The notes: generated by a model from the sequence alone, not told the origin. A stretch of 40,490 nt of DNA from an uncultured Gammaproteobacteria bacterium (GCA_964535515.1 CAZHTA010000004.1:27888-68377), one strand, 5' to 3'; shown: positions 6,519-40,255, counted from the first letter of the stretch. Numbers and translations: made by a program.

Positions 6519-7973
6519 ATGAAACAAGACTATATCCTCAAACAGCGCAAAAAGAACATGTATATTTTCCCTAATGTTTTTGTGATTGGGCGGGTTTTTA
6601 CGGGCAGTTTGAACAAAATATTGAATGGTAAGAATTTTGGAGAAACAATGTGTATTTACAAGGACGATATGATGTATTGGTATGCTTCGGATAGTATGGT
6701 AAAAGCGGCGGCGCAAGAATTTTTTAAGAAATTAAAAAAGAATTCAAATTTTGTTTCTTCGTCTATTCGTATTTTTTCTAAACGTAGTAATTTTTTTCTG
6801 TCTTGGGTAAAAAAAGTTAGTAAGAGGGATTTATCAAAAATGACCAACAAGGAGCTGGATGTTTTTTGGGATAAGTATTTAGAGCTCTATGAGTCTAGCT
6901 ATATCTATAGTGAAGCATTGGTAATTTGTTTTGAAGAATACCTTTCTGGTCTTTTGTCTTCGTATTTAAAGAAATTAGTAAAAAGTGATACTGAAGCATC
7001 TCGGGTTCAAAATGTTCTTGCTTCGCCTTTGGAAAAATCATTTGTGAAAAGAGAAGAAGATGATTTGTTGAATTTGGCGTTAAAGATTAAAAACGGCAAG
7101 GTGAAGGATGTAGAATTGGCGTTAGAAAAACACGTGGAGAAGTATCAATGGGTGCCGTTTGATTATGGTATGTATATTTGGGATAAAAAATATTTTAAAA
7201 AGATTTTGCAAGGGATGTTAAAAAATGCAGATTTAGAGAATCGGATTGTGGCTAGTAAGAAATATTTGAAGTATTTGTCTTTGGAACAGTTGCGTTTAGA
7301 AAAGGAATTAAAGATTGACAAGCAATACAAAAAATATTTTATGGCGATGCGCCAGACGGGGTATTTGTTAGATTACAAAAAGGAAATTTTTACCCAGATA
7401 CATTTTTATGCAGAGAAGGTATTGGCGGAGACAGGTAAACGTTTGGGTGTAAAAAGAGATCTGGTGCAATATTATTTGCCAGGAGAAATCAAGACTGCCT
7501 TAAAGGAAGGTAAAGTGGTTGGCAAGAAAATATTAGAAGCGAGACAAAAACATTGTTATGTTCGTTGGTTTGATAATAGTATCGAAGCAGTGATAGACAA
7601 GCCGGATAGTTTGTTGGCTAAATTTTTATTAAAAGAAGATCCGACTTCAGCTAAATTTGAGGGTATTATTGCTTCGGCGGGAAAATGTATTGGAAAGGTA
7701 AAGATTTTACATAGTGCGTTAGAAGTAGACAAGGTGAAATTGGGTGATATTTTAGTTGCACCAATGACTAGTCCAGATTATGTTCCGGCGATGCGTTTGG
7801 CTGGGGCAATTATTACTGATGAGGGCGGGGTGATGTGTCACGCGGCGATTGTGTCGCGTGAATTAGGTATCCCGTGTGTGGTTGGTACGAAAAATGCCAC
7901 AAAGTTTTTACATGACGGTGACGAAGTGGAAGTGGATGCTAATCATAATTCGGTGAGGATAATTCGCAGATAG
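6519..7973 (+). CDS. Swivel paralog A: divergent N-terminal module followed by a C-terminal PEP-utilizing-enzyme mobile (phosphohistidine) domain
   Basis: C-terminus DEGGVMCHAAIVSRELGIPCVVGT matches the PEP-utilizers His signature. The N-terminal half contains the family motif HVEKYQW. Confidence 0.7.
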   Translation: MKQDYILKQRKKNMYIFPNVFVIGRVFTGSLNKILNGKNFGETMCIYKDDMMYWYASDSMVKAAAQEFFKKLKKNSNFVSSSIRIFSKRSNFFLSWVKKVSKRDLSKMTNKELDVFWDKYLELYESSYIYSEALVICFEEYLSGLLSSYLKKLVKSDTEASRVQNVLASPLEKSFVKREEDDLLNLALKIKNGKVKDVELALEKHVEKYQWVPFDYGMYIWDKKYFKKILQGMLKNADLENRIVASKKYLKYLSLEQLRLEKELKIDKQYKKYFMAMRQTGYLLDYKKEIFTQIHFYAEKVLAETGKRLGVKRDLVQYYLPGEIKTALKEGKVVGKKILEARQKHCYVRWFDNSIEAVIDKPDSLLAKFLLKEDPTSAKFEGIIASAGKCIGKVKILHSALEVDKVKLGDILVAPMTSPDYVPAMRLAGAIITDEGGVMCHAAIVSRELGIPCVVGTKNATKFLHDGDEVEVDANHNSVRIIRR

Positions 7974-7974
7974 C

Positions 7975-9411
7975 ATGTTAAATAGCAGCGATTCAAAACA
8001 TATTCGTGAAACTAATTGGTATCGCCAAGGTGGGGCGATTAATTTGTTTTATTGTTTTAGTCCGTTTCAATCTATTCGCGAAACCATTGGTTATGATGGT
8101 TGTATTATGTATCAAGAGGATGCTGTTAATACTGCTTTTTTTGAACGAGACAGAGAGGATAAGTTAGCACTTAAATTTATCCGAGCAAGCGGGGAAGACA
8201 AATATTTGGTGGACAGATGGATAAGCGTTTGGCGTATACGCATATTAAAGTTAAATAAGTTTTTAGATAAAAGTTTTTCTAAACCATTGGAAACGTGGTC
8301 TGATGCGGAGTTGGTTAATTTTTTCCATCGTTATGATCATTTGGCTTTAAGTCATTGGAAGAAGGGTGTTTTGTGTGAATGGACTGACCCTAATGGCTGG
8401 AATATAGTAAAGACGGAGGCTTTAAAATATTGCCCTAATCTTAGTGATGAAGATATTAATCTGTTAACATCACCAGAAAAGTTAACTGTAGTGCAGAAAG
8501 AATTAGTTGATCGGTTGGTTTTAATGAAAAAACAAAAGCAGGGTTTAAGTATTGAGCGCGAGCTTAAGAAACATGTTAGTAAATATTTTTGGATTCGCAA
8601 TAATTGGGCGTTTGTTTATGATTTAAAAGAAAAAGATTTTCAAAAGGTTATTAACAAAGAAATGTTAAAGTTGGAGAAAGTTGAAAGACAAGTGAAAGAA
8701 ATTAATGAATATATACGTGAGATTAAGAAAAAGAAAAAGATTTTAATCAAGAAAAAATCAGTACCACGTAAAGTACAAAATGTTTTTTACTTTTTTACTC
8801 AATTAACCGATTGGCGCGATGAGAGGAAAAAATTTGCTGCTTGTTTGCCAAATCATTATTTATATAAAATATTGAAAGTATTGGCGAAGAGAAATAATAT
8901 TTCTGAGGAGTTGGTTGGTTTATTAATATGGTTTGAAATTAGTGGTTGGAAATTATCTGTAAAAACAATAGATAATTTAAAAAGACGAGGGCAGGGCTGG
9001 ATCTATTATTGTCGTAAAAATAAACAATGCCAACAAGTTTATGGTAGTGAGGCAAAAAAGATTTTTAATGATTTGGTTAAGGCGTTAGATAAAGGTGAAT
9101 TGCGAGGGTTAATAGCAAACAAGGGTGTTGTGATTGGTAAAGCGAAGATTGTGGAAGTACAAGCTGATTTTAGTAAAGTAAAAAAAGGGGATATTATTGT
9201 TGCTAACATGACGCGCCCAGATTATGTACCGATTATGAAATTGGCAGGTGGAATAATTACCAATGAGGGAGGGATTACTTGTCACGCGGCAATTGTTAGT
9301 CGTGAGTTAAATATTCCTTGTATAATTGGGACACAGGTGGCTACGGATGTTTTAAAAGACGGTGATGTTATAGAAGTTGATGCGGATAATGGTGTAATTA
9401 GAAAAAAATAA
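7975..9411 (+). CDS. Swivel paralog B: N-terminal module plus PEP-utilizer phosphohistidine domain
   Basis: NEGGITCHAAIVSRELNIPCIIGT and KHVSKYFW. Starts 1 nt after paralog A. Confidence 0.7.
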   Translation: MLNSSDSKHIRETNWYRQGGAINLFYCFSPFQSIRETIGYDGCIMYQEDAVNTAFFERDREDKLALKFIRASGEDKYLVDRWISVWRIRILKLNKFLDKSFSKPLETWSDAELVNFFHRYDHLALSHWKKGVLCEWTDPNGWNIVKTEALKYCPNLSDEDINLLTSPEKLTVVQKELVDRLVLMKKQKQGLSIERELKKHVSKYFWIRNNWAFVYDLKEKDFQKVINKEMLKLEKVERQVKEINEYIREIKKKKKILIKKKSVPRKVQNVFYFFTQLTDWRDERKKFAACLPNHYLYKILKVLAKRNNISEELVGLLIWFEISGWKLSVKTIDNLKRRGQGWIYYCRKNKQCQQVYGSEAKKIFNDLVKALDKGELRGLIANKGVVIGKAKIVEVQADFSKVKKGDIIVANMTRPDYVPIMKLAGGIITNEGGITCHAAIVSRELNIPCIIGTQVATDVLKDGDVIEVDADNGVIRKK

Positions 9412-9414
9412 TTT

Positions 9415-10890
9415 ATGCAAGATATTAATAGGTTGACTGAGAAAGATTGGTATTTTCAAGGGTTCAATGGTGTCCCAGCTCTTTTGTATGGTCCCGCTTG
9501 GTCTATGGCGCGTGATATGCCAAAATTTTTAGGTTTTGGCTATTCTGTTTGTGTTGAATATTTCACTAAGGATGTTTGTTATTATCTATATTCTTGGGAT
9601 GATTTATATAAAATTCATGATGAATTATTAAAACGTGTTAAACGCGACAAAAATTATTTGCGTTATTTATCAAAATCAGATGAATGTTTATGTAAAGAAG
9701 TGATTAAAGAATATAAAATTTTAGGTGGGAAAGATTGGTGCAGTGCTTCCATAAAAGAATTATTTTCGGGTTGGCGTAAAGCCAATGATTTATATGCGCA
9801 TCTTTTAGGGGTTTCGCATATTGTAGAAGGGTTTAGTTTAACCACAGAAGATCGAATTAGAGCTTTGATTAATGAAGTTTTTCCTAATGATTCCGGAGCT
9901 TTGTCGTTGCTCACTACTCCCAAGACGCATTCTTTTATGTCTATTGAGCACTATGAGTTATGTTTAATAGCTCATGGTGTTAAACGTATTAAATTGGGTA
10001 AGTGTACTGTTGAAAATATTTTGGTTAATAAGGTGATAAATAAAAAAATATGTCTTCATCAGGAGAAATATTATTGGAAATTAAATGGTTATACGTCGGC
10101 TAAGTTTCTAGACGACAAGTATTTTGCCAAAGAAATATGTGGTTTGTTAAACAAGAAAGTTAATTTTGAAAAATTTATTCATGATTTTGAAAATTTGTCC
10201 AAAAGATTAGATGGAAAAAAGAAACTTCTTAAAAAAGTGAAAAATCAAGAATTACTTGATTTATTAAAAATTTCTGATGCGTTGTTTGTGATCCACGATC
10301 GTCGTAAAGAGCATATGACGCAATCAATTACTTATTTGGAATTAATTTTAAGTGAGATTGCTAAGCGATTTAAAATACCTTTATCTGATTTGCACTATAT
10401 TCGTCCGTCAGAGTTAGAAAAGTTACCTAAGATTTGGTCGGAGTTAAAAAAGAGGAAAGAACATAGCATATACATTTTATATCCAGAAGGAGAGATGCCA
10501 GTATTAACTGGTTTAAAAGCAAAAAAATATTTTGAAAAAATTGAAAAGAATAAAAAATTAGATAAGATTTCGGAGATTAAAGGGAATGGTGCGTCGCCAG
10601 GAAAAGTAAGAGGCGTAGTTAAGGTGTGCCGCGGTGAAAAAGAATTAGGTAAAATGAAAGAAGGAGATATTCTCGTGGCGTGTATGACACAGCCTGAATT
10701 TTTACCGGCTTTGAGAAAAGCTAAGGCCGTCATTACTGATGAGGGTGGTTTGACTTGTCATGCTGCGATAGTGGCAAGGGAGTTAGGAATTCCTTGTGTG
10801 ATTGGAACAAAAGTAGCTACTAAAGTTTTAAAAGATGGTGATATGGTAGAAGTTGATGCGGATAATGGTATAATTAGGAGAATAAAATAG
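9415..10890 (+). CDS. Swivel paralog C: N-terminal module plus PEP-utilizer phosphohistidine domain
   Basis: DEGGLTCHAAIVARELGIPCVIGT and QEKYYW. Confidence 0.7.
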   Translation: MQDINRLTEKDWYFQGFNGVPALLYGPAWSMARDMPKFLGFGYSVCVEYFTKDVCYYLYSWDDLYKIHDELLKRVKRDKNYLRYLSKSDECLCKEVIKEYKILGGKDWCSASIKELFSGWRKANDLYAHLLGVSHIVEGFSLTTEDRIRALINEVFPNDSGALSLLTTPKTHSFMSIEHYELCLIAHGVKRIKLGKCTVENILVNKVINKKICLHQEKYYWKLNGYTSAKFLDDKYFAKEICGLLNKKVNFEKFIHDFENLSKRLDGKKKLLKKVKNQELLDLLKISDALFVIHDRRKEHMTQSITYLELILSEIAKRFKIPLSDLHYIRPSELEKLPKIWSELKKRKEHSIYILYPEGEMPVLTGLKAKKYFEKIEKNKKLDKISEIKGNGASPGKVRGVVKVCRGEKELGKMKEGDILVACMTQPEFLPALRKAKAVITDEGGLTCHAAIVARELGIPCVIGTKVATKVLKDGDMVEVDADNGIIRRIK

Positions 10891-10960
10891 TTCTTTAAAA
10901 CACAAGCACCCGACCGAAGTCGAGTGCGTTGTGCACGTTGTTGGGGCCTGCTCCAATGAG

Positions 10961-11452: not shown

Positions 11453-11605
11453 CTCTCGTTCTCCTATGGTTGTGCGACACGCTGTCGCTTGGTCCCAAAT
11501 AAACGTGCAGTTTGTTTCAGATAGTGCTCGGATTTGGTTAAATCCAGGCAAAATCATGGTACCAAACGTTTCAGTATAGTATATTTTCGCTGTTTTGTCA
11601 ATATT

Positions 11606-13087
11606 ATGTACAAATCACCTCAATTTAAATCAAATAAACTAGAACTTACGGTTAGTCGTCCGTATGTTCCTTTGTGTGCTAACTATTTTTTCCAAAGCTA
11701 CAGTAATCCAGAATATTTTAAGAAGTTTTATAAAATTAACTTTTTTACTCGTTTATTAGCAATTAATGCGGATTTTTATTATGGCCTAGAAGCAAAAGAT
11801 TTTGGCTATGTTCTTTTTGGACAAGCGGCAAAGTATGGTAGTCATAGTAAAATTAAAAAGAAAAATCTTAAGGGTATTTTGCACATTTTTGATCGGACCT
11901 ATAAATTTGGTGATTCGTTATTGGAATTTACTTTGCAAGTTAAGAAAACAGATTTTTCTGAATATTCAAAGAAGCAATTATTAGAGGTGTTTGGAAAATT
12001 TTCGAAAGATTATGTTGTTTTTTGTACTGCTTTATTGGGTATGAATATGCAGTATGTTGTCGAAGATGGTTTGCGTGAGTTTCTACGAAGTGATAAAAAC
12101 GCAGAAGAGGAGCTTGCGATTTTGACTTTTCCTGATAAACAAAATGTTCTTGTTCAAGAACTAATGGACTTATTGCGTTTACGAATTAAATTAGAAAAAG
12201 TTGGTGTTAAGAATTTGGAAAAATGTAAGACCAAGGAGCTTGGCTTACTAAAGAAGCATGTTGATAAGTACGGTTGGATCAATGCTCGTGGTGCCATTAA
12301 TGAAGGATGGACGGTAAAAGAGGTTTTTGATCGGGCGATGGCAGAAAAGAATTGTGCTAAACGTTTGGTTGAGATAGTTAAGAATCAAAAAGAGCATCAA
12401 AAACAAGTTCGAGATATATTTAAAACAAAAAAACCTAATGCGGAAATTAGGGATTTAATAAAAATCGCCAAAGAGCTGGTATATTTTCGCACCTACCGTA
12501 CAGATTATCTTAATTGGATGTTTTTTAATATTCGTCCTTTATTAAATGCGTTGGCAGGTAAGATGGGTATTAGTTTTGAGGATATTATATATTATCTACC
12601 AAAAGAAATCATGACTAAGAAAAAAGTGTCTGAAAAAGAGGTTGTTCGTCGCAAGGAAGGTTACGCGATATTGTTAGCTAAACCTTATGAGGTATTATTC
12701 TCCTCTGATCCTAAGAAAATATTGGAATGGAAAAAGAAACATACTGAGGTATTAGGTGGCAATGTTACGGAAGTTAAGGGTATGTCTGCATACAAAGGTA
12801 TTGTTCGTGGTAAGGCTGTGTTGGTATTGAAAAAGGCTGATATGGTAAAGGTTAAGTCGGGGGATGTTTTAATCACTTTTATGACTACGCCAGATATGGT
12901 ATCGGTTATGCAGAAAGCAATAGCGTTTGTTACTGATGAGGGTGGTATTACATGCCATGCGGCGATTGTAGCACGGGAGATGAAGAGACCGTGTGTAACA
13001 GGGACCAAAATTGCTACTAAGGTTTTTAAAGATGGCGATGAAGTAGAAGTGGATGCGAATACTGGTGTAGTGAAAATTATTAAATAA
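11606..13087 (+). CDS. Swivel paralog D: N-terminal module plus PEP-utilizer phosphohistidine domain
   Basis: DEGGITCHAAIVAREMKRPCVTGT and KHVDKYGW. The listed ORF starts at a TTG (11534) inside the island; the first ATG is at 11606 (MYKSPQFK). Confidence 0.65.
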   Translation: MYKSPQFKSNKLELTVSRPYVPLCANYFFQSYSNPEYFKKFYKINFFTRLLAINADFYYGLEAKDFGYVLFGQAAKYGSHSKIKKKNLKGILHIFDRTYKFGDSLLEFTLQVKKTDFSEYSKKQLLEVFGKFSKDYVVFCTALLGMNMQYVVEDGLREFLRSDKNAEEELAILTFPDKQNVLVQELMDLLRLRIKLEKVGVKNLEKCKTKELGLLKKHVDKYGWINARGAINEGWTVKEVFDRAMAEKNCAKRLVEIVKNQKEHQKQVRDIFKTKKPNAEIRDLIKIAKELVYFRTYRTDYLNWMFFNIRPLLNALAGKMGISFEDIIYYLPKEIMTKKKVSEKEVVRRKEGYAILLAKPYEVLFSSDPKKILEWKKKHTEVLGGNVTEVKGMSAYKGIVRGKAVLVLKKADMVKVKSGDVLITFMTTPDMVSVMQKAIAFVTDEGGITCHAAIVAREMKRPCVTGTKIATKVFKDGDEVEVDANTGVVKIIK

Positions 13088-13117
13088 TTTGTTTATATAT
13101 TTTTAACTTATAAAAAT

Positions 13118-14200
13118 ATGGAAAGAGGACCAAGTTTAAGGCCAGAGGATATGCTAGTTGGCAATGATGGGGTGGATCAGAAAGCGCGAGGTGTAATTGA
13201 ATCACGTGATAGCGCCGTAGCTCATAATATTGAGCGTGGGGAAGGCTTATCATCTTCGCGTGTTGTTTTGGAGTTTATGCGTCATGGTAAAAAAGAAAAA
13301 GCGCCAGGCAAAGATGATCGTGATATACGCATTGTTCCGGAAGCGCGTGTGGCAGCAACGGAAAAAGGTAAAAAATTAGGAGCGCAAGCTGAGGTGTCGG
13401 TTGTTTATGCTAGTCCGCGTAACCGTACTCAGGAATCTGCTGGCCGAGTTGCTTTGGGTAATCAATCAGAAATTACTGCGGATATGAGCTTAGAGGATAT
13501 TATGGTTAAAACAATGGAGCATAATGCTATTTTAATGCCTGATCAGTTAGAACGTTTGCGCGAGCTGTTGTCTCATCCAATGGAAGAATTAAATGCTGAA
13601 GAAAAGAAGGAGCTAAAACTTTTGTCGAGTAAAGGTAAAAAAATCATGGTTGATGAACGTTTGGATTTTACTGATGAAACAGAGGAGGGTCTAAAAGCTT
13701 TTATGGCTGGTCGTTATTTAGATCATGCTGTAAAGGATAGTGATCAGTTGGCAATTGCAAAGCATGATACTAAATTATCTACCTATACTCGTTCGGCTGG
13801 TAAGATCGCGGAGATTGTTTCTAAATATATTCAGGTGGGTAAAAATTTTAACAAAAGAGTAAGTGTTGATCCAGAGAAATATAAAAAATTCGGTAATCAA
13901 TTAGAAAGATATTTTGGTTCACACCAAGGTGTTGTAGAATGTTTTTTGTTGAAAGCAATCGAGAAAATAAAAGGTGTAAAAGAGCGTGATGAGATTTTGG
14001 CTTTGATGCCAGCAGGTTTTAAAGAGTTACAAGGTGTAAGGATTGGCATTGAGAACAATGGCAAAGGAGAACAGGTGATTGTTTTAGATGCCGAAGTTGA
14101 AGGAAGAAAGATTAATTTAGAATTAACCCCAGAGATTTTAATGGGTATGGTTAGTGATAGAGATGTGCTGGATGAACAATGTAAGAGTAGTGTGGAGTAA
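13118..14200 (+). CDS. Histidine phosphatase superfamily (PGAM/SixA-like, RHG motif) protein
   Basis: VLEFMRHGKKE (RHG), then VPEAR..A.EKGKKLG, VVYASPRNRTQESA (SP..R..Q.A) and a distal GSHQGVVE resembling the second catalytic His region. Confidence 0.55.
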   Translation: MERGPSLRPEDMLVGNDGVDQKARGVIESRDSAVAHNIERGEGLSSSRVVLEFMRHGKKEKAPGKDDRDIRIVPEARVAATEKGKKLGAQAEVSVVYASPRNRTQESAGRVALGNQSEITADMSLEDIMVKTMEHNAILMPDQLERLRELLSHPMEELNAEEKKELKLLSSKGKKIMVDERLDFTDETEEGLKAFMAGRYLDHAVKDSDQLAIAKHDTKLSTYTRSAGKIAEIVSKYIQVGKNFNKRVSVDPEKYKKFGNQLERYFGSHQGVVECFLLKAIEKIKGVKERDEILALMPAGFKELQGVRIGIENNGKGEQVIVLDAEVEGRKINLELTPEILMGMVSDRDVLDEQCKSSVE

Positions 14201-14210
14201 TATTGTTGTT

Positions 14211-15281
14211 ATGTCTATCGTTCCTGATAAATTTTTAAAAGGAGAGTGTTGGCTGAAAGATTGGGCGGGTCAGTGGGATCTTTTTATTTGTTTTTATTCA
14301 GGAGAAGATTATACCACCTTACTTAAAAAGTGGTTGGGTATTAATTTTGATAAATGTCTTTTTATTTATCACGATGGGTTTGTGGAGTGTTATTTAAATA
14401 AAAGATGTTTAGATATTTTGGGTAGAGAGATTAACGCGAGGGTTAAAGAGGATGTTTTGTGGATTGATAGGAATTGTAAAGATCTTAAAAAGAATACACA
14501 AATTTTCCTAAAATATTTTGCTGAGCATAAAAACGATTTGGTTGCGGAAGAGACATTGAAGAAGTTTTTGCAGTTGGTTAGCAATTGTTTTGCTGCGTAT
14601 ATTTCTAATAAATTAGCATTTGATTATTTGTCAGCAGATATATTAAAGAAAAAATGGAATGTGATGGAATCGGCACGTGTATACTCAGAATCGGTTTATA
14701 CGGCGTGTATAGAGTTTGTTCACAATTGGGGTAAACAAATGGCGAAAAAAGTTAAGATACCAAAGGATCTCTTTCTTTGTTGTTCGTTAAATGAAATTGA
14801 AACTTATTATCGATCGGGTAGATTACCAAGTGTTAGCGAGTTAAAGCGACGGTATTCGTTTAATGTGATACTTTCACAGAATGGTCAGAGTTTTTTATTG
14901 ACTGGCTCAGAGGCTAAGGCTGTTGAGAAAAAGATTATTAGTTCATTTGGCGACAGTAAAACCATTAAAGGCACCTGTGCCTATCCGGGGAAAGTAACGG
15001 GGCGGGTTAGAATTGTTTTTGATCCTAAAAAGATAAAAGATTTTAAAGATGGGGATATCTTGGTAACACCGATGACGCGACCGGAGTATCTTTCTCTAGT
15101 TAAAAAATCCGCTGGTTTTATTACTGATGCTGGCGGTATGCTTTCTCACGCCGCTATTACAGCGCGCGAGTTAAAGAAGCCGTGCGTGGTAGGTACCCAA
15201 GTGGCTACGCGTTTGTTAAAAAATGGAGATGAGGTGGAAGTGGATGCCAACAAAGGGATAGTTAATGTGATTAAAAGATAA
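14211..15281 (+). CDS. Swivel paralog E: shorter N-terminal module plus PEP-utilizer phosphohistidine domain
   Basis: DAGGMLSHAAITARELKKPCVVGT (Ser replaces the usual Cys before the His). First non-overlapping ATG is at 14211; the listed ORF begins at 14154. Confidence 0.6.
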   Translation: MSIVPDKFLKGECWLKDWAGQWDLFICFYSGEDYTTLLKKWLGINFDKCLFIYHDGFVECYLNKRCLDILGREINARVKEDVLWIDRNCKDLKKNTQIFLKYFAEHKNDLVAEETLKKFLQLVSNCFAAYISNKLAFDYLSADILKKKWNVMESARVYSESVYTACIEFVHNWGKQMAKKVKIPKDLFLCCSLNEIETYYRSGRLPSVSELKRRYSFNVILSQNGQSFLLTGSEAKAVEKKIISSFGDSKTIKGTCAYPGKVTGRVRIVFDPKKIKDFKDGDILVTPMTRPEYLSLVKKSAGFITDAGGMLSHAAITARELKKPCVVGTQVATRLLKNGDEVEVDANKGIVNVIKR

Positions 15282-15288
15282 TGATTTT

Positions 15289-16839
15289 ATGAAGGTGCTA
15301 AAAACTTTTCCTTTGGCTTTGACCAAAAAAACTGCTAGTCAGTTTAATAAGGCGTTTCATGCCAAGTTATTTACTTTGTTTGCTTCTTCGATGAGTGAAC
15401 TAATGCAGTTGGCTAAGGATTTTCCTGTGCATTATAAACATTGTTTGTGTTTTATTAAAGATGATTTAGGCCAGTGGTTTTTGGGCGCAGATAGCATCGA
15501 AAGAGTTAGGCGGTATATCATAAAAAAAGCTGATGAGGATTTTTCTCAGATAAATAAATATTATTTACGTTGGCAGAAAGACTGGGGTAAGTTTTTAATA
15601 TTAAACAGAAAATTAATTAGTTCAGATTTTAGTTCTTTGACTGACAAGCGGTTGTATAAAGTTTTTGATGAGTTTTATGATCTATATTTAAAAGTAGGTG
15701 GTGTGGCATATATTAGTGATGCCTTTATGTCCTCTGGGGAAAAAGATTGGCTGCAAGAGGTTATAAACCAAGAATTAAAACGCATTTATAAAGATATTGA
15801 AAAAGTAAAAAGGGTGGCGGCGGATTTGATTTCGCCAGTTCATCTTTCTTTTGTTTTGGAAGAAGAACTTGAATTATTAAAACTAGCTCCGGCGTTTATT
15901 AATCTTACTGGTAAATTGGTGGGTTTTAATAAGTTGTCCGCTAAACAACTAGCGCAGCTGGAACGTCATGCTGACAAATATTATTGGATGAATAATAACT
16001 ACTATAACGTAGAATTTTACGATGCATTTTCAGTATATACACATCTGGTCAATCTTTTAGATGGTTTGCAACAAGAAAAACGTAGCCTTAGTGATTTTTT
16101 GGCGGAGAGACAGCGCGAATTAAAGGAAAATAAAACGAGGCGTGAGGGGTTGATTAGTGATATTAAGCTACCAAAAAAGATTAAGAGCTTAATTCGGGTA
16201 GCTAATTTGTTTAGCAAGTGGAAAGACGTTCGGAAAAGTGGTGTGTATCGTGGCATGGCAATTTTTGATAAATTTTTGGGCGAGATAGCAATGCGTACTG
16301 GTTATACAAAAAAGGAAATTACTTTTTTAGTTTTTCCGGAGTTCAAGGATTTATTGTTAAATAGAAAAGATTTTCGGTTGGTTATAAAAGATCGTCAAAA
16401 GCAAATATTTTTTGTGGTGCGTCCGCACGACTATCTTTTGGTTAGCGGTCAAAAGGCGGATAAATATTTTGCTTGTTTGTCCGAAGGACTCAATGCTGAG
16501 ATGAAAGAATTCAAAGGAGCAGTGGCCTCCAAAGGAATCGCGCGCGGGGTGGTGCGGATGATAAGGAAAACAGAAGAGATGAAAGACTTTAAAAAAGGTG
16601 AAATTTTAGTTACCAACAATACTACACCAGAGTTTGTTCCAATCATGAAAAAGGCCGCAGCGATCATTACTGAACAAGGTGGTATAACCTCACATGCTGC
16701 TGTAGTTTCGCGTGAATTGCGTAAGCCGTGTATTATTGGTGTTAAAGGTATTACAACCATTTTAAAAACAGGGGTAGAGGTTGAAGTAGATGCTAATCAT
16801 GGTATAATTAAGATTATTAATAAAAGTTTAAAGAAATAA
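15289..16839 (+). CDS. Swivel paralog F: N-terminal module plus PEP-utilizer phosphohistidine domain
   Basis: EQGGITSHAAVVSRELRKPCIIGV and ERHADKYYW. Confidence 0.7.
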   Translation: MKVLKTFPLALTKKTASQFNKAFHAKLFTLFASSMSELMQLAKDFPVHYKHCLCFIKDDLGQWFLGADSIERVRRYIIKKADEDFSQINKYYLRWQKDWGKFLILNRKLISSDFSSLTDKRLYKVFDEFYDLYLKVGGVAYISDAFMSSGEKDWLQEVINQELKRIYKDIEKVKRVAADLISPVHLSFVLEEELELLKLAPAFINLTGKLVGFNKLSAKQLAQLERHADKYYWMNNNYYNVEFYDAFSVYTHLVNLLDGLQQEKRSLSDFLAERQRELKENKTRREGLISDIKLPKKIKSLIRVANLFSKWKDVRKSGVYRGMAIFDKFLGEIAMRTGYTKKEITFLVFPEFKDLLLNRKDFRLVIKDRQKQIFFVVRPHDYLLVSGQKADKYFACLSEGLNAEMKEFKGAVASKGIARGVVRMIRKTEEMKDFKKGEILVTNNTTPEFVPIMKKAAAIITEQGGITSHAAVVSRELRKPCIIGVKGITTILKTGVEVEVDANHGIIKIINKSLKK

Positions 16840-16840
16840 T

Positions 16841-17827
16841 ATGCCAAAAGTTTCTCATATTAAGTTTTTTAAGAATATCTCTAAAAGTGATGTTGATATT
16901 GCTGGTGGTAAGGGTGCGTCTTTAGGTGAGATGACACAAGCCAAGATTCCAGTACCAAATGGTTTTGTGGTTTTAGCCGCAGCCTTTGATCGTTTTTTAG
17001 AAGAGACACAATTAAAAGAGGAAATTGTGGCACGGCTAAAGGAAGTTAACCCAGAAGATACTAATTCGGTTGATCGTATTAGTGCGGTTATTCGTGATGC
17101 GATTCATGATCGGTCAATGCCTAAAGATTTGCAGAAAGAAATTTTAGGAGCATTTACTAAGTTAGATGCTAAATTTGTGGCTGTACGTTCATCGGCTACA
17201 GCAGAGGACTCATCTGTTGCTAGCTGGGCAGGGGAGCTGGAGAGTTATTTAAATACGAGTAAAAAAGATTTGATTGAACGGGTGCGTCGTTGTTGGTCGT
17301 CGTTGTTTACTCCGCGTGCTATTTTTTATCGTCATGAAAAAGGGTTAATTGACCATTATGTCTCAGTAGCGGTAGTAGTACAAAAAATGGTGCAGTCAGA
17401 AATTTCTGGCATTGCTTTTACTGTTCATCCAGTAACGGAAGATTATGACCAGATGATTATTGAAGCGGGGTATGGTTTGGGTGAAGCGATTGTCTCTGGA
17501 CAAATTACACCTGATAGCTATGTGATTAGCAAGGGTAGTATGGAGATTATGGATACTTATGTTAGTTCACAAGCTCGTCAGTTAATTCGTAAGAAATCTG
17601 CTAAGAGCAAAGGGGATGAAGAAAACACTTCAAATGAGTGGGTAAATTTAGGTAAAAAAGGTGAAAAACAAAAGGTCGACAACAAAACGGTCTTGGCCCT
17701 GGCCAAAGTATTTAAACGGATTGAGGACCATTACAAGTTTCCGTGTGATATCGAATGGGCTATGGAAAAGAAAAAAATATATATTACCCAAAGTCGTCCG
17801 ATTACTACTTTAAAGAAGAAAAAGTAG
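16841..17827 (+). CDS. Stand-alone PEP synthase / pyruvate phosphate dikinase N-terminal nucleotide-binding (ATP-grasp, PPDK_N-like) domain protein
   Basis: DVDIAGGKGASLGEM, VAVRSSATAEDSSVASWAGELESY, ISGIAFTVHPVT and ITQSRPIT are motifs of the PEP synthase/PPDK/rifampin-phosphotransferase ATP-binding domain. There is no swivel or PEP-binding domain in this ORF. It starts 1 nt after paralog F. Confidence 0.75.
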   Translation: MPKVSHIKFFKNISKSDVDIAGGKGASLGEMTQAKIPVPNGFVVLAAAFDRFLEETQLKEEIVARLKEVNPEDTNSVDRISAVIRDAIHDRSMPKDLQKEILGAFTKLDAKFVAVRSSATAEDSSVASWAGELESYLNTSKKDLIERVRRCWSSLFTPRAIFYRHEKGLIDHYVSVAVVVQKMVQSEISGIAFTVHPVTEDYDQMIIEAGYGLGEAIVSGQITPDSYVISKGSMEIMDTYVSSQARQLIRKKSAKSKGDEENTSNEWVNLGKKGEKQKVDNKTVLALAKVFKRIEDHYKFPCDIEWAMEKKKIYITQSRPITTLKKKK

Positions 17828-24277: not shown

Positions 24278-24394
24278 AACCTCCTGCTTTGTCTCCAAAT
24301 ATTTAGAGATAAAACAGTAGGGCGGTCGGATATGTATCCTTTGTCCCACTGCGCTCTGGATCGAACGATCCTGGGCGGGGGGGCACGGGCCTCT

Positions 24395-24616
24395 TCAGTC
24401 GTTGCGCTCGATCGGCTCGCCGTCGGACTCGGTGCGTACGCGATGGTGTGCGCCAGCCCAGGTGCGAAGAACGCCGCGACTGCCTTCGGTGCCACGAAGA
24501 TGTCGCACAGACGGCGGGGTCGAGACGTCTTTGGCTTTGGCCGCACGTTCGAGGATCTCTTCCCAGCAGTCCGCGCACGGAGCCGTTTCCGAACAGTCCG
24601 GATTGTTGCAAGGCAT
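24395..24616 (-). CDS. High-GC small Cys-rich ORF of 73 aa within a foreign-looking island. Function unknown.
   Basis: MPCNNPDCSETAPCADCWEE... has four Cys spaced C-x4-C-x6-C-x2-C. Elevated GC3, with AAAGGG upstream of the ATG. Several overlapping ORFs occupy the same island, so the frame choice is tentative. Confidence 0.25.
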   Translation of the reverse strand: MPCNNPDCSETAPCADCWEEILERAAKAKDVSTPPSVRHLRGTEGSRGVLRTWAGAHHRVRTESDGEPIERND

Positions 24617-24763
24617 TATGATGCCCTTTCAAAAGTTGAAGGATAAAACTATTAAACATTAAAAAAAGTGTTTAGTCAAGAACTGTGGGTTAATTAGAAA
24701 AATACTAAATTTATGCATATTTAAGCCAAAAAACGGCAAAAATAGTCGAATTTTGCCTAACTA

Positions 24764-33468: not shown

Positions 33469-34830
33469 ATGGAACAGGTGAATATTAAAAGATACAAAGA
33501 TTCTTTTAAGTGGCAGTTTGGTGCTTATCCTTTTTTTACTTCGGTTTTTACTAAATGCGCTGATTTGAAAATTAAAAAGAAACATCATCTTTGTTTTAAT
33601 GAATATATTAGTAATTTTGAAAATGATTCAGTAACAGCGTTTATTCCATGGGAAGTTTTTGAAACACCTGGTAGGAAGATTATTAAAAAAATACTAGCAG
33701 GGGACAAGTATTATTATAACGAAATAAAAAGAACACATAGTGCAGTTAAAAAAGCTATTGCAGCATGTTTGTTGGCGCGGTCTAAAAATGTTAATGAATT
33801 GGGTAGGTGGTGGAGATTAACTCAGGATGCGCTATCGGATGTTAGTCGTGTATTATATTCATTTGATTTTACTTTTGATTTATTTTTAAATGAATTAAGA
33901 GCGAAGGATCAGGATTTGTTTGTGGTGTTGTTAGAGAATATAAAAACAAAAGAAAAATCTTTTCTTGAGGAAGCCTCGGCTAAGTTGTTAAAATTAAAAT
34001 CAGAAAGCAGTGATTTTAAAAAGGTCTATATTAAATTTGTTAAAGAGTTTGGGTGGTTTCAAAATAGTTATAGAGGAGTTTTTAAATTCGATGAGACTTG
34101 GTTGAAACAGTATTTAAAAAATATTTTGCAGCCAAATAAAAAGGACAAAGCAAAGGCGCCGGGCGTTGTTCCGTCTAAATACAAGTTATTAGTTAAGTTG
34201 GCGAAAGAAACGATAGTGTTTAGAGATGACAAGAAAAAATTATTACTAGTCGCAGCAGATGTGATGGATAGTTGGCTAAGGAGAGTTTGCAAAGAACACG
34301 GTTGGTCTTTTGAAGCAATGCGTTGGTTAACAGTAGATGAGATATTGGATGTAATAGAAAATGGTAATAAAAAGAATTTGGTGTTGGCAGAAAAATATTA
34401 CAAAGCCAAGCGACGCATTGGTGTTATGGTCAGTACAGGTTATTTAGATATTAGTAAAAAAGATTGGGACAAAATATATTTGTTGTACTTTACTTCTAAG
34501 AGTGGTTTGGTAAAAGGATTGGCAGCTAACAAAGGTGTCTATAGAGGAACGGTGCGAGTAATTTTAGATCCAGTGAAGGATGCAAAAAAGTTTTATCCAG
34601 GAGATGTTTTAGTCGCCTCGATGACTCGTCCGGAGTATATTAGTCTAATGAGTAAGGCGGGTGCTTTTGTGACTGATGAAGGTGGAATATCTTGTCATGC
34701 TGCTATTGTGGCTAGAGAAATGGGGAAGCCGTGTATTATTGGCACCAGAAATGCTACTAAGATGTTAAAGGATGGTGATTTTGTGGAGGTGGATGCTAAT
34801 ATTGGAATTATTAAAGTCGTTAAAAATTAA
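33469..34830 (+). CDS. Swivel paralog G: N-terminal module plus PEP-utilizer phosphohistidine domain
   Basis: DEGGISCHAAIVAREMGKPCIIGT. The N-terminal half shares the family pattern (VKEFGWFQNSY). Confidence 0.7.
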   Translation: MEQVNIKRYKDSFKWQFGAYPFFTSVFTKCADLKIKKKHHLCFNEYISNFENDSVTAFIPWEVFETPGRKIIKKILAGDKYYYNEIKRTHSAVKKAIAACLLARSKNVNELGRWWRLTQDALSDVSRVLYSFDFTFDLFLNELRAKDQDLFVVLLENIKTKEKSFLEEASAKLLKLKSESSDFKKVYIKFVKEFGWFQNSYRGVFKFDETWLKQYLKNILQPNKKDKAKAPGVVPSKYKLLVKLAKETIVFRDDKKKLLLVAADVMDSWLRRVCKEHGWSFEAMRWLTVDEILDVIENGNKKNLVLAEKYYKAKRRIGVMVSTGYLDISKKDWDKIYLLYFTSKSGLVKGLAANKGVYRGTVRVILDPVKDAKKFYPGDVLVASMTRPEYISLMSKAGAFVTDEGGISCHAAIVAREMGKPCIIGTRNATKMLKDGDFVEVDANIGIIKVVKN

Positions 34831-34843
34831 TTTACGATTGTAA

Positions 34844-35461
34844 ATGATTATGAATAAGTCTTTTATCTTTGATTGGTCTGGGACGCTAAGTGACAATTTC
34901 AACTGCTTTTGTAAAGTGTGTGATTTGATGTTTCCGGAATTAGGGCGAGAAAAAATTACTCCTGAAGAAATTAGGAAGGAGTTTACTTTACCGTATATGT
35001 CTTTTTGGAATAAATATTTTCCGGAATTATCCCAAGAAAAACAATGTGGAATGTATGTAAAATATATTCATCAGGTTGGTAATCCGAATCTTTATCCGGG
35101 TGTAAAAGAAGTAATTACAGCATTGCATGGCGGTGGTCATAAGATATTTATTGCAAGTTCCGATCCAGAATCAAAGATAACAGAAGAAATTGAAGCTTCA
35201 GGTTTAAAGGATTTTTTAAGTGGGTATTATTTTGAATTACAAGATAAGACTGAAAAGATTATGGAGCTGGTTAATAATACGCCTTTAGATATTAACAGTA
35301 CTTACTATATTGGTGATACTTTTGGTGATGTTGAGATGGGTAAAAAAGCGGGTGTTAAAACAGTTGGTATTTCTTGGGGGTTTCAGAGTCGTGAGGGTTT
35401 GGCTCTGAGTAAACCGGATTTTTTAATTGATGATATTTTAGAGATTAAAAATATTATATAA
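34844..35461 (+). CDS. HAD-superfamily phosphatase
   Basis: Motif I FIFDWSGTLSDN (DxxGT), motif IV YYIGDTFGDVEMGKKAG and a cap region. Confidence 0.7.
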   Translation: MIMNKSFIFDWSGTLSDNFNCFCKVCDLMFPELGREKITPEEIRKEFTLPYMSFWNKYFPELSQEKQCGMYVKYIHQVGNPNLYPGVKEVITALHGGGHKIFIASSDPESKITEEIEASGLKDFLSGYYFELQDKTEKIMELVNNTPLDINSTYYIGDTFGDVEMGKKAGVKTVGISWGFQSREGLALSKPDFLIDDILEIKNII

Positions 35462-35466
35462 ATTTT

Positions 35467-36561
35467 GTGCGTTCAGTATTGAATACAATTAAAAAATTTG
35501 ATTTAGAAGTGGCCACTAAAAGACCTCTACCTTTGTTTACCTTGAGTTGTATAGGGAAAACCTATGTGGATGTATTAAAAAAGAAATATTTTAAGTGTAA
35601 TTATGAGGCTGTAGCTGGTTGGGGTGATAAAAATGGTTTTGTATCTTTACTTAATGAAGAGGCGGTGGTGGATACAATGGCAAATAAGTTAAAAAAAGAA
35701 AAAGATATAAAAAAGAAGTTTGTGGTACCTCTACAAACCAATTTTGTAAAGTTTAAGAAAGAATTTAATGTATTGTTGTCTAATTTGGGAAGAAAGAATG
35801 CGTTGTTAAGTTTAAAACTTTTGTCTAAGTATTATATTGACTATCTCGTGATCTTAGGTAGCTTGAATTGTCTTTGGCGATATATTGGTGATAACGCCGT
35901 AACAAAGTGTAACAAAAAAGACATTGAATATTTTGCCAAAGCCAGGGGAAATGTTGCAGAAATATATCCGCAGATGGAAGGGGCTCTTTCTTTGTTGTGT
36001 AACAAAATTGGTGAGCAGCAAAAATTTGACGGCGATTTGTTGCGATATTTTACTCGCGCAGAGTTAGATAATTTTTTAGACAAAAAGGAATTGTTAAATT
36101 TGGAAAAGCAACAAAAGTTAAAGAAGAGGAAAGTTGGATATTTTTATATTTACACTAAAAATACTGAAGAAGTTGTAACTGAGGACAACGTTTTAATAAA
36201 AAAGATCAAACAGTTTGCACTTAAAAATAGCCAGCCCAAGTCAGGATTAAAAGGTACAGTTGTTTATCTAGGCAAGGTAGAAGCAAAGGTGTTTAATTTT
36301 GATCAAAATTTTAAGAAAGCACCTGCTGGTAAATTTATTTTGGTAACACACATGACTCATCCTAAAGATTTAACGTTGATTAAAAAATCACTAGGGATAA
36401 TTACTGATGAAGGGGGAGTGTTGTGTCATGCGGCGATTATGGCGCGTGAACTCAAGAAGCCGTGTATAATTGGTACAAAGGTGGCTACGCAATTATTAAA
36501 AACCGGTATGAGTGTTGAATTAGATTGTTACAAAGGAACTATTAAAATAATTAAAAAATAA
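35467..36561 (+). CDS. Swivel paralog H: N-terminal module plus PEP-utilizer phosphohistidine domain
   Basis: DEGGVLCHAAIMARELKKPCIIGT. GTG start at 35467. Confidence 0.65.
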   Translation: MRSVLNTIKKFDLEVATKRPLPLFTLSCIGKTYVDVLKKKYFKCNYEAVAGWGDKNGFVSLLNEEAVVDTMANKLKKEKDIKKKFVVPLQTNFVKFKKEFNVLLSNLGRKNALLSLKLLSKYYIDYLVILGSLNCLWRYIGDNAVTKCNKKDIEYFAKARGNVAEIYPQMEGALSLLCNKIGEQQKFDGDLLRYFTRAELDNFLDKKELLNLEKQQKLKKRKVGYFYIYTKNTEEVVTEDNVLIKKIKQFALKNSQPKSGLKGTVVYLGKVEAKVFNFDQNFKKAPAGKFILVTHMTHPKDLTLIKKSLGIITDEGGVLCHAAIMARELKKPCIIGTKVATQLLKTGMSVELDCYKGTIKIIKK

Positions 36562-36564
36562 AAT

Positions 36565-37422
36565 ATGCCAGATAAATATACTGCCGTTTGGGTTTCACAC
36601 TCTTCGATTAGTGATTGGTTGCATTGTCCGCAGGCATATTTTTTGCAAAATGTGTATCGTGATCCTAAGACCAATCATAAGATAAGAATAACACGCCCCA
36701 GTTTGTCTTTGGGTAGTGCGGTGCATGAAGTTTTAGAAGGAATTTCTTTGTTACCAAAAGAAACTCGTTTTAACGAATCACTTGTTTCTAAGCTTGAAGA
36801 TGCTTGGAAAAGAGTCAGTGGTAAAAGAGGTGGGTTTTTAGATTCAGAAAGTGAGTACCGGTATAAAATGCGTGGTCAGGAGATGCTGCGTCGAGTAATG
36901 AACCACAAAGATGTTTTAGCTGGTCCAGCGGTAAAAATCAAAGAAGATTTACCCCATTTTTGGTTGTCAGAAGAAGATAACATAATTTTGTGTGGTAAGA
37001 TTGACTGGTTGGAATATTTACCAGAGATTGACAGTGTGCATATTATCGATTTTAAGACGGGGAAAAGTGAAGAGGATCCAGATTCACTGCAGTTACCAAT
37101 ATATCATTTGTTGGTTCACAATTGTCAAAAACGTAAAGCCGTAAAAGCTAGTTATTGGTATGTAGAATCAAGTGATGGTTTAACAGAAAAAGTTTTGCCT
37201 GACTTAGAATCATCAAGAAAAAAAGTTTTGGCAATCGCTCGTGATATTAAAATGGCGCGACAATTGAAACGTTTTAAATGCCCAGAAGGGGAGAGTTGTA
37301 AATTTTGTCAGCCACTTTTGAATGTAACCAAAGGTTTGGGTGAATTAGTTGGGACGGACGATTACAAAAGTGACATATATATCTTGCCGGTGGCTGAGGA
37401 AAAGGAAAGTGTTATACTTTAA
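36565..37422 (+). CDS. PD-(D/E)XK nuclease with a probable Fe-S cluster (Cas4/AddB-nuclease-like)
   Basis: N-terminal Cys (LHCPQAY), GKIDWLEY, IIDFKTGK (D/ExK) and QLPIYHL (QxxxY). The C-terminus is CPEGESCKFC (C-x6-C-x2-C). Confidence 0.55.
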   Translation: MPDKYTAVWVSHSSISDWLHCPQAYFLQNVYRDPKTNHKIRITRPSLSLGSAVHEVLEGISLLPKETRFNESLVSKLEDAWKRVSGKRGGFLDSESEYRYKMRGQEMLRRVMNHKDVLAGPAVKIKEDLPHFWLSEEDNIILCGKIDWLEYLPEIDSVHIIDFKTGKSEEDPDSLQLPIYHLLVHNCQKRKAVKASYWYVESSDGLTEKVLPDLESSRKKVLAIARDIKMARQLKRFKCPEGESCKFCQPLLNVTKGLGELVGTDDYKSDIYILPVAEEKESVIL

Positions 37423-39502: not shown

Positions 39503-40255
39503 TTAAACCATTTTAACGTCAGCTAAGTTATGAATACCGTTTATCCAAGACAAGGCCGGCATAGTATTTTTACCTTCGGGTTGTAAGGTGATAATTTCTA
39601 ATGATCCAACTTTACACCCGATTAGTACTTTACTTTTTTCTAATACTATTTTCCCAGTTGGCATTTCAGTGTCAGTTGGTAGTACTTCTAAGAGTTTGAT
39701 TCGCTTGTCTTGAAAAGTGGTCCATAGCCCTGGCCAGACTTCTAAACCACGACCAAGATTGTAAATTTCAGTAGCAGTTTTGTTCCAATCGATGTGTCCG
39801 CTTTCTTTGGTAAACATGGTACAAAAAGTTGCTTGGGACTCATCCTGGATTTGGGGTTTAATTGTACCTGCCAAATAGTTTGGGATAGTCTCTGTAAGCC
39901 CTAAAATTGCCGTTTTAAGCAGTTTTCCAGCCAAAGTAGTGTAAGTGTCAGTTGGATCGATTTTTACTATGCCAGAATGTAAAATTGGTCCATGATCCAT
40001 CTTTTCGTCCATAAGCATAATCGAGACGCCGGTTTCAGTTTCGCCATTAATTAAAACTGACTGAATAGGGGAGGCACCACGATATTTTGGTAAAAGTGAG
40101 GGGTGGACATTGATTGACCCAAATTTAGGTGCTTCAACAATCCGTTTCGGGATAATGAGTCCATATTCGCAGACAATATTTAACTCAATATTTTCCGGGA
40201 AGATGTATTCTTTTAATTTTAGAAATGGATATGGGTTTTTAAACAATTGCGACAT
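39503..40255 (-). CDS. fmt: Methionyl-tRNA formyltransferase-like protein that lacks the N-terminal 50-60 residues present in canonical Fmt
   Basis: INVHPSLLPKYRGASPIQ contains the N and H catalytic residues. An Fmt C-terminal-domain-like region is present (LEVWPGLW). An in-frame stop lies 2 codons upstream of the ATG. Confidence 0.55.
   Translation of the reverse strand: MSQLFKNPYPFLKLKEYIFPENIELNIVCEYGLIIPKRIVEAPKFGSINVHPSLLPKYRGASPIQSVLINGETETGVSIMLMDEKMDHGPILHSGIVKIDPTDTYTTLAGKLLKTAILGLTETIPNYLAGTIKPQIQDESQATFCTMFTKESGHIDWNKTATEIYNLGRGLEVWPGLWTTFQDKRIKLLEVLPTDTEMPTGKIVLEKSKVLIGCKVGSLEIITLQPEGKNTMPALSWINGIHNLADVKMV

Follow-up and report, generated by a model that had tools for sequence, protein, structure and literature searches.

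Two dispersed swivel-domain proteins as probable components of a split RPH-like dikinase in an envelope-glycan gene run

The gene run examined here raises the question of whether two swivel-domain proteins and the HAD-superfamily protein encoded between them act as one unit on cell-envelope glycans. The run lies in a stretch of 40,490 nucleotides from an uncultured Gammaproteobacteria bacterium (GCA_964535515.1, CAZHTA010000004.1:27888-68377); the whole stretch is referred to as the window, and all coordinates are counted from its first letter. The two swivel genes, G and H, are separated from six paralogues, A to F, that form a main array. An earlier note on this DNA proposed that such proteins phosphorylate sugar or lipid-linked envelope intermediates, which neighboring phosphatases trim or regulate. 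In our analysis, the family comprises eight genes, of which G and H are genuine though outlying members, and their association with the HAD gene and with glycan genes is incidental. We consider it probable that proteins A to H, each joining a substrate module to a phosphohistidine swivel, constitute a split RPH-like small-molecule dikinase together with one separate ATP-grasp subunit, with G and H relocated as a pair and the HAD gene an incidental neighbor. The eight family members most likely share this single ATP-binding partner, which is encoded 16 kb from G and H.

Domain content and predicted fold of G and H

The swivel domain PF00391 was recognized by Pfam in G with an E-value of 4.8e-25 (87.4 bits) and in H with an E-value of 9.6e-23 (80.0 bits), against a gathering cut-off of 23.1 bits. 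A motif search located T-x-x-G-G-x-x-x-H in all eight paralogues (8/8), the predicted phosphocarrier being His410 in G and His321 in H. These findings bear out the earlier assignment of both proteins as swivel paralogues. In the alignments, His410 is invariant across 66 G orthologues and His321 across 39 H orthologues; full-length orthologues number approximately 60 for G and 35 for H. Both are real genes. A profile of the N-terminal module (N-module) of G retrieved 238 proteins at E ≤1e-3 among 1.84 billion cluster representatives, 33 of which scored at ≤1e-30, and G is a small, specific orthogroup inside a very diverged superfamily.

The N-modules of the eight paralogues share 21–28% identity or show no detectable similarity, and those of G and H have no significant similarity to each other (20 bits). 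Orthologues elsewhere score 160–600 bits for the N-module of G and 60–230 bits for that of H, whereas no paralogue in the window exceeds 41 bits. A recent origin of G and H by duplication of A to F, or of each other, was rejected on the basis of these dissimilar N-modules and of the orthologues that each has in other genomes. G and H are old, separate orthogroups that occupy a main-array position in most lineages.

Structural comparison reached further than sequence comparison. The AlphaFold2 model of H, built on 39 orthologues, has a predicted local distance difference test (pLDDT) score of 91.2, and the top six Foldseek matches obtained with it were all RPH, over 267–350 columns. RPH is the sole solved structure that aligns with G and H beyond the swivel, covering the substrate module and the swivel at 15–19% identity, and the analogy with RPH drawn in the earlier note is thereby sustained. 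In the predicted models, the N-terminal modules of G and H share the fold of the RPH rifampin-binding domain, and the swivel is docked to this RPH-like substrate module.

Family models define what G and H are not. The RPH equivalog of NCBIfam, NF041857, scores 64 bits for G and 42 bits for H against a cut-off of 999, and the PEP_synth model scores 110 and 71 bits, respectively, against a cut-off of 740. Models of phosphoenolpyruvate (PEP) synthase, RPH, PigC and similar enzymes match the last ~100 residues, far under their cut-offs; the RPH/PRK06241 profile and the NCBIfam matches of A, F, H and the G profile reach 65–250 residues upstream of the swivel. PF00391 is the sole Pfam domain in G and H, PF01326 is absent, and the chains end at the swivel. 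Thus, G and H are not PEP synthases, because they have no PEP-binding domain, and they are not RPH proper, because the ATP-grasp domain is not in the same chain. They fit the role of HpeH and PpsA in two-component dikinases. Additionally, G contains a near-invariant or invariant R252-D253-x-x-K256, a candidate phosphate-transfer motif reminiscent of R666-E667-x-x-K670 of RPH; motifs similar to R-D-x-x-K were aligned in A, B, C and F.

The ATP-grasp subunit and swivel arrays in other genomes

The main array (6519–16839) comprises A to F and a His_Phos_1 gene and is closed by a stand-alone PPDK_N gene. The product of this gene matches HpeI (PDB 9GOJ) over its full length (E 7e-49) and also matches RPH's ATP-grasp domain, and it is the sole candidate within the window to charge the swivel histidines of A to H from ATP. 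The start of G lies 15.6 kb past it, and the distance from G and H to the ATP-grasp gene is 15.6–17.6 kb, with housekeeping genes in between.

Gene fusions and gene contexts in other genomes (loci and contigs are given L numbers) connect the two kinds of subunit more closely. A natural fusion protein of 772 residues, P0086, consists of an ATP-grasp domain 53% identical to that of the window followed by a full-length G-like protein (31% identity, residues 9–452), and PPDK_N fused to H-like modules was also found. A G orthologue is encoded directly upstream of PPDK_N in L102, and G orthologues occur within PPDK_N-containing arrays in L005, L109, L116 and L117; H orthologues are located next to PPDK_N, or in arrays with it, in L005 and L089. 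PPDK_N was seen within the available sequence in 24 of the 40 loci having at least three swivel genes. Approximately 187 kb separate a lone G orthologue (L003) from a PPDK_N array (L039) in CP066698, a complete Falkowbacteria genome; therefore, a dispersed arrangement like that of the window is not unique.

Genome scanning and annotation revealed tandem arrays of 3–11 swivel genes, usually with one PPDK_N, across bacteria belonging to the candidate phyla radiation (CPR), namely Magasanik-, Falkow-, Nealson-, Woese-, Moranii-, Pacei- and Saccharibacteria, and across DPANN archaea, namely Woese-, Nano-, Pace-, Micr- and Undinarchaeota.

The mechanism that we infer from RPH, PpsAB and HpeHI would begin with the ATP-grasp subunit, which would bind ATP and use its beta-phosphate to phosphorylate the histidine of the swivel, His410 in the case of G and His321 in that of H, with release of AMP and Pi. 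The swivel domain would then swing back onto its own N-module, which resembles the RPH rifampin-binding domain, and the phosphate would be passed there to a hydroxyl group of a bound small molecule. Each paralogue would have its own substrate, giving eight specificities, and one charging subunit would serve all of them in trans. Domain content, fold, motifs, orthology, gene contexts and natural fusions form the observed basis of this scheme; charging in trans, dikinase chemistry and one substrate per paralogue would follow by analogy with the characterized enzymes.

Several points weigh against this scheme. Charging of G or H by the ATP-grasp subunit is presumed across 16 kb and intervening housekeeping genes, the rest of the genome being unseen. 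The candidate phosphate-transfer motif of G, R252-D253-x-x-K256, is absent from H, D and E in the alignment, and a sequence alignment of the RPH rifampin-binding domain with a fused CPR protein, intended to map Arg666, Glu667 and Lys670, aligned the ATP-grasp and swivel domains alone. The N-modules of G and H, at ~345 and ~255 residues, are much smaller than the 428-residue RPH rifampin-binding domain, and the pocket may differ greatly. Furthermore, the fold evidence comes from predicted models, and the phosphatases embedded in arrays could mean that the phosphate is not handed to a stable product.

The arrays elsewhere also take other forms. Uninterrupted frames of 2700–3550 residues, each starting with PPDK_N, were observed at L054:2-10651, L084:3113-12019, L071:2174-10315 and L115:2-9766, on contigs of DPANN and unclassified archaeal metagenome-assembled genomes and on one unassigned metagenome contig. 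The frames of L054, L084 and L071 hold eight, six and five swivel domains, respectively, as would be expected if entire arrays had become fused into polyproteins. At five loci, genes of the riboflavin pathway (lumazine synthase RibH, Lum_binding) are located in or beside arrays (L017, L028, L032, L048 and L073), and PTA_PTB, hexapeptide transferases, methyltransferases and Polbeta/HEPN pairs are also recurrent inside arrays.

The HAD gene and the glycan neighborhood

As had been noted earlier, the HAD-superfamily gene alone separates G from H; its product scores 75.9 bits for HAD_2 against a Pfam cut-off of 23.8. Its designation as a HAD phosphatase holds for the fold and for motifs II–IV, of which S105, K135 and G157-D158...D162 are invariant in 21 homologues. 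Motif I reads F-D-W-S-G-T-L (D10-W-S12-G-T); the second Asp of HAD phosphatases, which acts as general acid/base, is replaced by Ser. Because Ser12, nearly invariant in the 21 homologues, replaces the canonical D-x-D-x-[TV] pattern, the phosphatase label is uncertain. In model scoring, the protein comes out as HAD-IA/PpaX-like, at 61 bits (cut-off 218). The D-W-S-G-T form of motif I occurs in the HAD homologues P0241-P0355. According to a review, a Ser at the Asp+2 position is peculiar to LHPP; this HAD enzyme hydrolyzes P-N bonds and pyrophosphate. It is conceivable that the HAD protein resets phosphohistidine, although the gene context gives this no support.

HAD orthologues (54–61% identical) occupy three unrelated contexts, one of them between BacA/YceG and PMT_2/GT2, and none has a swivel gene within 6 kb. 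A hidden Markov model of the HAD family detected it on the contig of L001 (the same contig again as L099) only; neither the 78 array loci nor the remaining G-orthologue loci of the metagenome scan gave a match. The window HAD shows no similarity to the HAD-like families embedded in other arrays. One such family ('IKAIFFDxGxV'; L008, L027, L034, L039 and L040) likewise lacks the Asp at +2. The window HAD appears to be a widely conserved CPR/DPANN hydrolase that was inserted between or near G and H only in some members of the clade, and it is probably not a dedicated partner of either.

The broader suggestion that phosphatases are placed beside swivel paralogues stood as a general pattern and failed for this HAD. 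Among 84 open reading frames (ORFs) embedded in arrays of other genomes, Pfam assigned seven to His_Phos_1, five to HAD and four to HD, compared with at most two members each among 148 control ORFs from the same loci (conservative Fisher p ~3e-4, with genome relatedness not corrected for). Orthologues of the His_Phos_1 gene of the window were located in or beside arrays at L008, L011, L028, L031, L036, L039, L064, L102 and L104. The pattern is real and is carried by other families, chiefly the His_Phos_1 type of the main array. The window also encodes an HD-domain protein (19564–20184; PF01966, E 5e-12), 1.7 kb downstream of the ATP-grasp gene and after an SPFH gene. Its membership of the array-embedded HD-like family was considered and rejected, as no similarity was found; it belongs to a different family.

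Pfam annotation of the neighborhood placed two FemAB genes, a Polysacc_synt flippase and GT4 upstream of G, and GT2, Wzy_C(-) and formyltransferase(-) downstream of H. The FemAB, flippase, GT4, GT2 and O-antigen-ligase-like genes listed in the earlier note are thus present; a nuclease gene between H and GT2 (Table 1) had gone unmentioned. The fmt-like gene that had been counted with the glycan locus has both Fmt domains and, in a relative, a peptide deformylase neighbor, and is an ordinary Met-tRNA formyltransferase. The gene order in the window is GT4-G-HAD-H-nuclease-GT2. In the closest relative, L085 (G 81% and H 64% identical), the order is flippase-GT4-H-G-nuclease, with HAD absent, and in L001 (G 77% identical) it is GT4-HAD-H-G-nuclease-GT2-Wzy_C(-)-fmt(-). 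L002, in which an exact-sequence look-up found the same G protein as in L001, has H-G-nuclease-GT2. The G-HAD-H triplet was found in no other contig examined. It is a local arrangement of one small lineage rather than a conserved unit, and these gene orders are most simply read as a joint move of G and H into an envelope-gene run in which the HAD gene is a variable insertion.

Beyond this clade, approximately 15 informative G contexts were obtained through exact look-ups and a metagenome scan with an N-module-only alignment; a scan with the full-length G alignment drew on the swivel region and returned all kinds of paralogue, and was used for the array survey. In about 11 of the 15, swivel genes or PPDK_N adjoin G, with no glycan genes. 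One lineage, L113, again has G beside an H-like gene, and L097 has the order adh_short-G-unknown-Wzy_C. As side observations, L097:1726-3123 encodes bAvd and the reverse transcriptase of a diversity-generating retroelement approximately 5 kb upstream of the G orthologue, and in a Falkowbacteria-type clade (L003, L096, L098, L106, L107 and L108) G is solitary and invariably follows a class I (Trp/Tyr) tRNA synthetase gene directly, at a distance of 1–3 bp.

These contexts bear directly on the proposal of a functional G-HAD-H unit within the envelope-glycan locus, in which G and H phosphorylate sugar or lipid-linked intermediates and HAD trims or regulates them. We regard it as unlikely. The same-strand genes from FemAB to GT2 are tightly packed (gaps of 3–13 bp, as for GT4, G, HAD, H and the next gene); however, almost the whole window is one plus-strand run, and co-direction therefore carries little weight. 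The H and G pair lies between GT4 and the PD-(D/E)XK/GT2 genes on three relatives' contigs (L001, L002 and L085), and HAD is immediately upstream of H in the window and in L001, but HAD is missing from the closest relative, the order is altered in the next closest, and this synteny is common to close relatives only (at least 64% identity). The distant G orthologue of L097, followed by an unknown gene and then Wzy_C, and the HAD orthologue between BacA/YceG and PMT_2/GT2 favor an envelope connection, as does the precedent of the Hpe pathway, in which a dikinase step is followed by dephosphorylation (PMC12167813). Against this, HAD orthologues occur without swivel genes and most informative G contexts have swivel or PPDK_N neighbors. 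PF00391 is present in both proteins and part of the neighborhood recurs in relatives, yet the proposed functional unit is not upheld: the glycan context does not extend past a single shallow clade, and in more distant lineages the orthologues of G and H are mostly found in arrays by PPDK_N. A context so confined gives no evidence for envelope substrates, and the HAD gene and glycan neighbors should not serve to assign substrates to G and H.

The features of the window are collected in Table 1. Its GC content is low, about 36%, and nearly all genes are on the plus strand. Homologues of its proteins suggest a Patescibacteria affiliation.

Table 1. Swivel paralogues, ATP-grasp subunit and associated features of the window
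Feature	Position	Strand	Description
Paralogue A, main array	6519..7973	+	484 aa; PF00391 E 1.2e-26; His441 motif
Paralogue B, main array	7975..9411	+	478 aa; PF00391 E 7.6e-26
Paralogue C, main array	9415..10890	+	491 aa; PF00391 E 4e-28
Paralogue D, main array	11534..13087	+	517 aa; PF00391 E 1.4e-23
Histidine-phosphatase-superfamily protein inside main array	13118..14200	+	360 aa; His_Phos_1 E 8.4e-06
Paralogue E, short form, main array	14154..15281	+	375 aa; PF00391 E 3.3e-25
Paralogue F, main array, directly upstream of ATP-grasp gene	15289..16839	+	516 aa; PF00391 E 5.2e-26
Stand-alone ATP-grasp subunit (PPDK_N), HpeI/PpsB-like	16841..17827	+	328 aa; PF01326 E 1.1e-95
Paralogue G	33469..34830	+	453 aa; predicted N-module like RPH rifampin-binding domain, ~aa 1-345; swivel phosphohistidine domain, aa 377-445
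Codon of His410, predicted phosphocarrier histidine of G	34696..34698	+	T402-D-E-G-G-I-S-C-H410; motif search
HAD-fold hydrolase	34844..35461	+	205 aa; HAD_2 E 5.7e-21; atypical motif I D-W-S-G-T
Paralogue H	35467..36561	+	364 aa; short predicted RPH-like N-module, ~aa 1-255; swivel, aa 290-357
Codon of His321, predicted phosphocarrier histidine of H	36427..36429	+	T-D-E-G-G-V-L-C-H; motif search
PD-(D/E)XK/Cas4-like nuclease, between H and GT2	36565..37422	+	PF12705 E 5e-22

The nuclease gene also adjoins the H/G pair on its 3' side in L001, L002 and L085, and nothing shows it to be part of the swivel system. In a PADLOC search (E ≤1e-3), G, H, HAD, the ATP-grasp subunit, His_Phos and A had no defense-system match; the nuclease alone matched, to Cas4-type models, and no CRISPR or other cas genes were seen near it. 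Rfam and tRNA scans of the window gave no match. A promoter and terminator scan of 28.0–38.5 kb yielded counts no higher than those of shuffled sequences, and operon boundaries therefore could not be drawn.

Three further observations concern the composition of the window. A 600-bp island with 65–68% GC, compared with ~36% for the genome, lies at 10900–11500 between paralogues C and D. It contains a minus-strand ORF (~11453 to 10961, 'MARVLLITHGSKG...') preceded by a Shine-Dalgarno-like AGGAGA, with weak similarity to His_Phos_1 (E 0.005) and a weaker match to the PhoE phosphatase (E 0.3); the island could have been acquired recently from a high-GC organism, or it could reflect a chimeric assembly. 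A second GC-rich island (24300–24650, 62–66% GC), between a GtrA-like gene and ribosomal-protein genes, holds a minus-strand ORF of 118 residues (24303–24659) and gave no match in the Rfam and tRNA scans. Finally, the Met-tRNA formyltransferase ORF (39503–40255, minus strand) lacks approximately the first 70 profile positions of Formyl_trans_N, has in-frame stops upstream, and encodes 250 residues compared with 303 in a relative; it may be truncated, frameshifted or affected by a sequencing error.

Alternative roles and comparison with known dikinases

The same split-dikinase chemistry could be directed at xenobiotics or antibiotics from hosts or neighbors, the paralogues forming a detoxification or resistance battery as RPH does for rifamycins. 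RPH is the closest structural relative, and its family includes antibiotic-acting dikinases; many highly diverged paralogues, with N-modules at 21–28% identity, would also suit a diversified recognition repertoire in episymbionts. However, conserved orthologues with invariant residues across CPR and DPANN look more like fixed metabolic specificities than fast-evolving resistance genes, the RPH equivalog model is not matched, and no resistance or efflux genes are adjacent. We give this role as little credence as the envelope unit. A bolder combination, which we hold to be improbable as well, would have a single ATP-grasp subunit charge in trans up to about a dozen diverged swivel proteins in CPR and DPANN organisms, some of them linked into polyproteins of 5–8 modules. 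G and H would have been recruited to the envelope locus to phosphorylate a precursor of glycan or lipid-linked type, and the Ser(+2) HAD would cleave a P-N bond, so that it would reset the phosphohistidine rather than dephosphorylate the product.

A phosphohistidine relay, in which the charge state of the swivel is a signal or is passed to proteins and is reset by the embedded PGAM-like His_Phos_1 and Ser(+2) HAD proteins, is very improbable. The HAD family has Ser at Asp+2, as in the P-N-hydrolyzing LHPP; PGAM5, of the histidine-phosphatase superfamily, dephosphorylates phosphohistidine on NME2; and phosphohydrolases are enriched inside arrays. Nevertheless, the predicted models of G and H show the swivel docked to a complete RPH-like substrate module, which argues for small-molecule substrates; the window HAD is not array-associated elsewhere, and no target proteins are evident. 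The reading of G and H as fragments of PEP synthase or pyruvate phosphate dikinase (PPDK) active in central carbon metabolism, or as decaying remnants of such genes, can practically be dismissed: although their top NCBIfam and PDB sequence matches are PEP synthases and some sources name homologues 'phosphoenolpyruvate synthase/pyruvate phosphate dikinase', these matches span the ~100-residue swivel only (76–119 bits against cut-offs of 598–740), the chains have no PEP/pyruvate-binding domain and end at the swivel, so that domain content already contradicts the idea, and the N-modules are conserved and, in the models, confidently folded and RPH-like.

Returning to the split RPH-like dikinase, its relevance extends beyond the window. 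CPR and DPANN genomes are tiny yet keep 5–11 copies of this type of swivel protein, which are therefore likely to be central to the handling of scavenged small molecules. Annotation routinely mislabels swivel proteins as PEP synthase or PPDK, and metabolic reconstructions of these organisms are distorted as a result. Recognizing them as components of split dikinases of the RPH/HpeHI type yields a concrete assay, in which candidate metabolites are combined with ATP, the ATP-grasp subunit and a swivel protein. Two-component RPH-like dikinases are already known; the new elements are the one-to-many arrangement, the minimal modules, the dispersed members and the CPR/DPANN distribution. Literature searches on CPR and DPANN swivel or dikinase expansions found no description of such arrays in the searchable literature.

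Among known systems, LHPP is comparable to the HAD gene only, through the HAD fold and the Ser for Asp at +2 after the nucleophile; it belongs to the NagD clade (C2 cap), whereas the window protein is HAD-IA/PpaX-like, and the comparison holds at superfamily level. PEP synthase and PPDK share a homologous swivel (31–55% identity over ~100 residues) and a homologous ATP-grasp domain with the system described here, but G and H lack the PEP/pyruvate TIM barrel and have an unrelated RPH-like module as the second substrate site.

RPH (PDB 5HV1, 5FBS/T/U; PMC4844700), from a wide family of small-molecule dikinases, some of which act on antibiotics, aligns with G and H over the substrate module and swivel. 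Its ping-pong mechanism via the swivel phosphohistidine presumably applies to G and H, and the conserved R-D-x-x-K of G may correspond to R666-E667-x-x-K670. However, RPH joins its three domains in one chain; G and H, by contrast, have no ATP-grasp domain, and their N-modules are 80–170 residues shorter than the rifampin-binding domain, at the low identity given above. Fused RPH-like forms of G do occur elsewhere, as in P0086.

The two-component small-molecule dikinases HpeHI, CreHI and PpsAB (phenylphosphate synthase) offer the closest parallel in architecture. HpeI is the ATP-grasp subunit and HpeH the swivel/substrate subunit, for which a T/S-x-x-G-G-x-x-x-H motif has been described and for which the authors reported RPH as the structural match, the same pattern as for H here (PMC12167813). 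As in these enzymes, the ATP-grasp subunit, which matches HpeI end to end, is separate in the window from an RPH-like module with a C-terminal swivel carrying this motif. The differences lie in size, context and host: HpeH has ~640 residues compared with 453 in G and 364 in H, the substrate modules have no detectable sequence similarity, the aromatic-catabolism context is absent here, and the host genomes are of the CPR/DPANN episymbiont type. The genes for G and H lie 16 kb away from that of the ATP-grasp subunit rather than side by side with it as a pair, although the side-by-side arrangement is found for orthologues elsewhere (L102, L005, L117 and L089) and for paralogue F of the window. 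HpeH and HpeI are matched one to one, whereas one ATP-grasp gene here accompanies eight swivel proteins, and up to 11 in other CPR/DPANN loci. The recently defined two-component dikinase subfamily would be widened: besides the one-to-one pairs of aromatic catabolism, it would take in a one-to-many arrangement.

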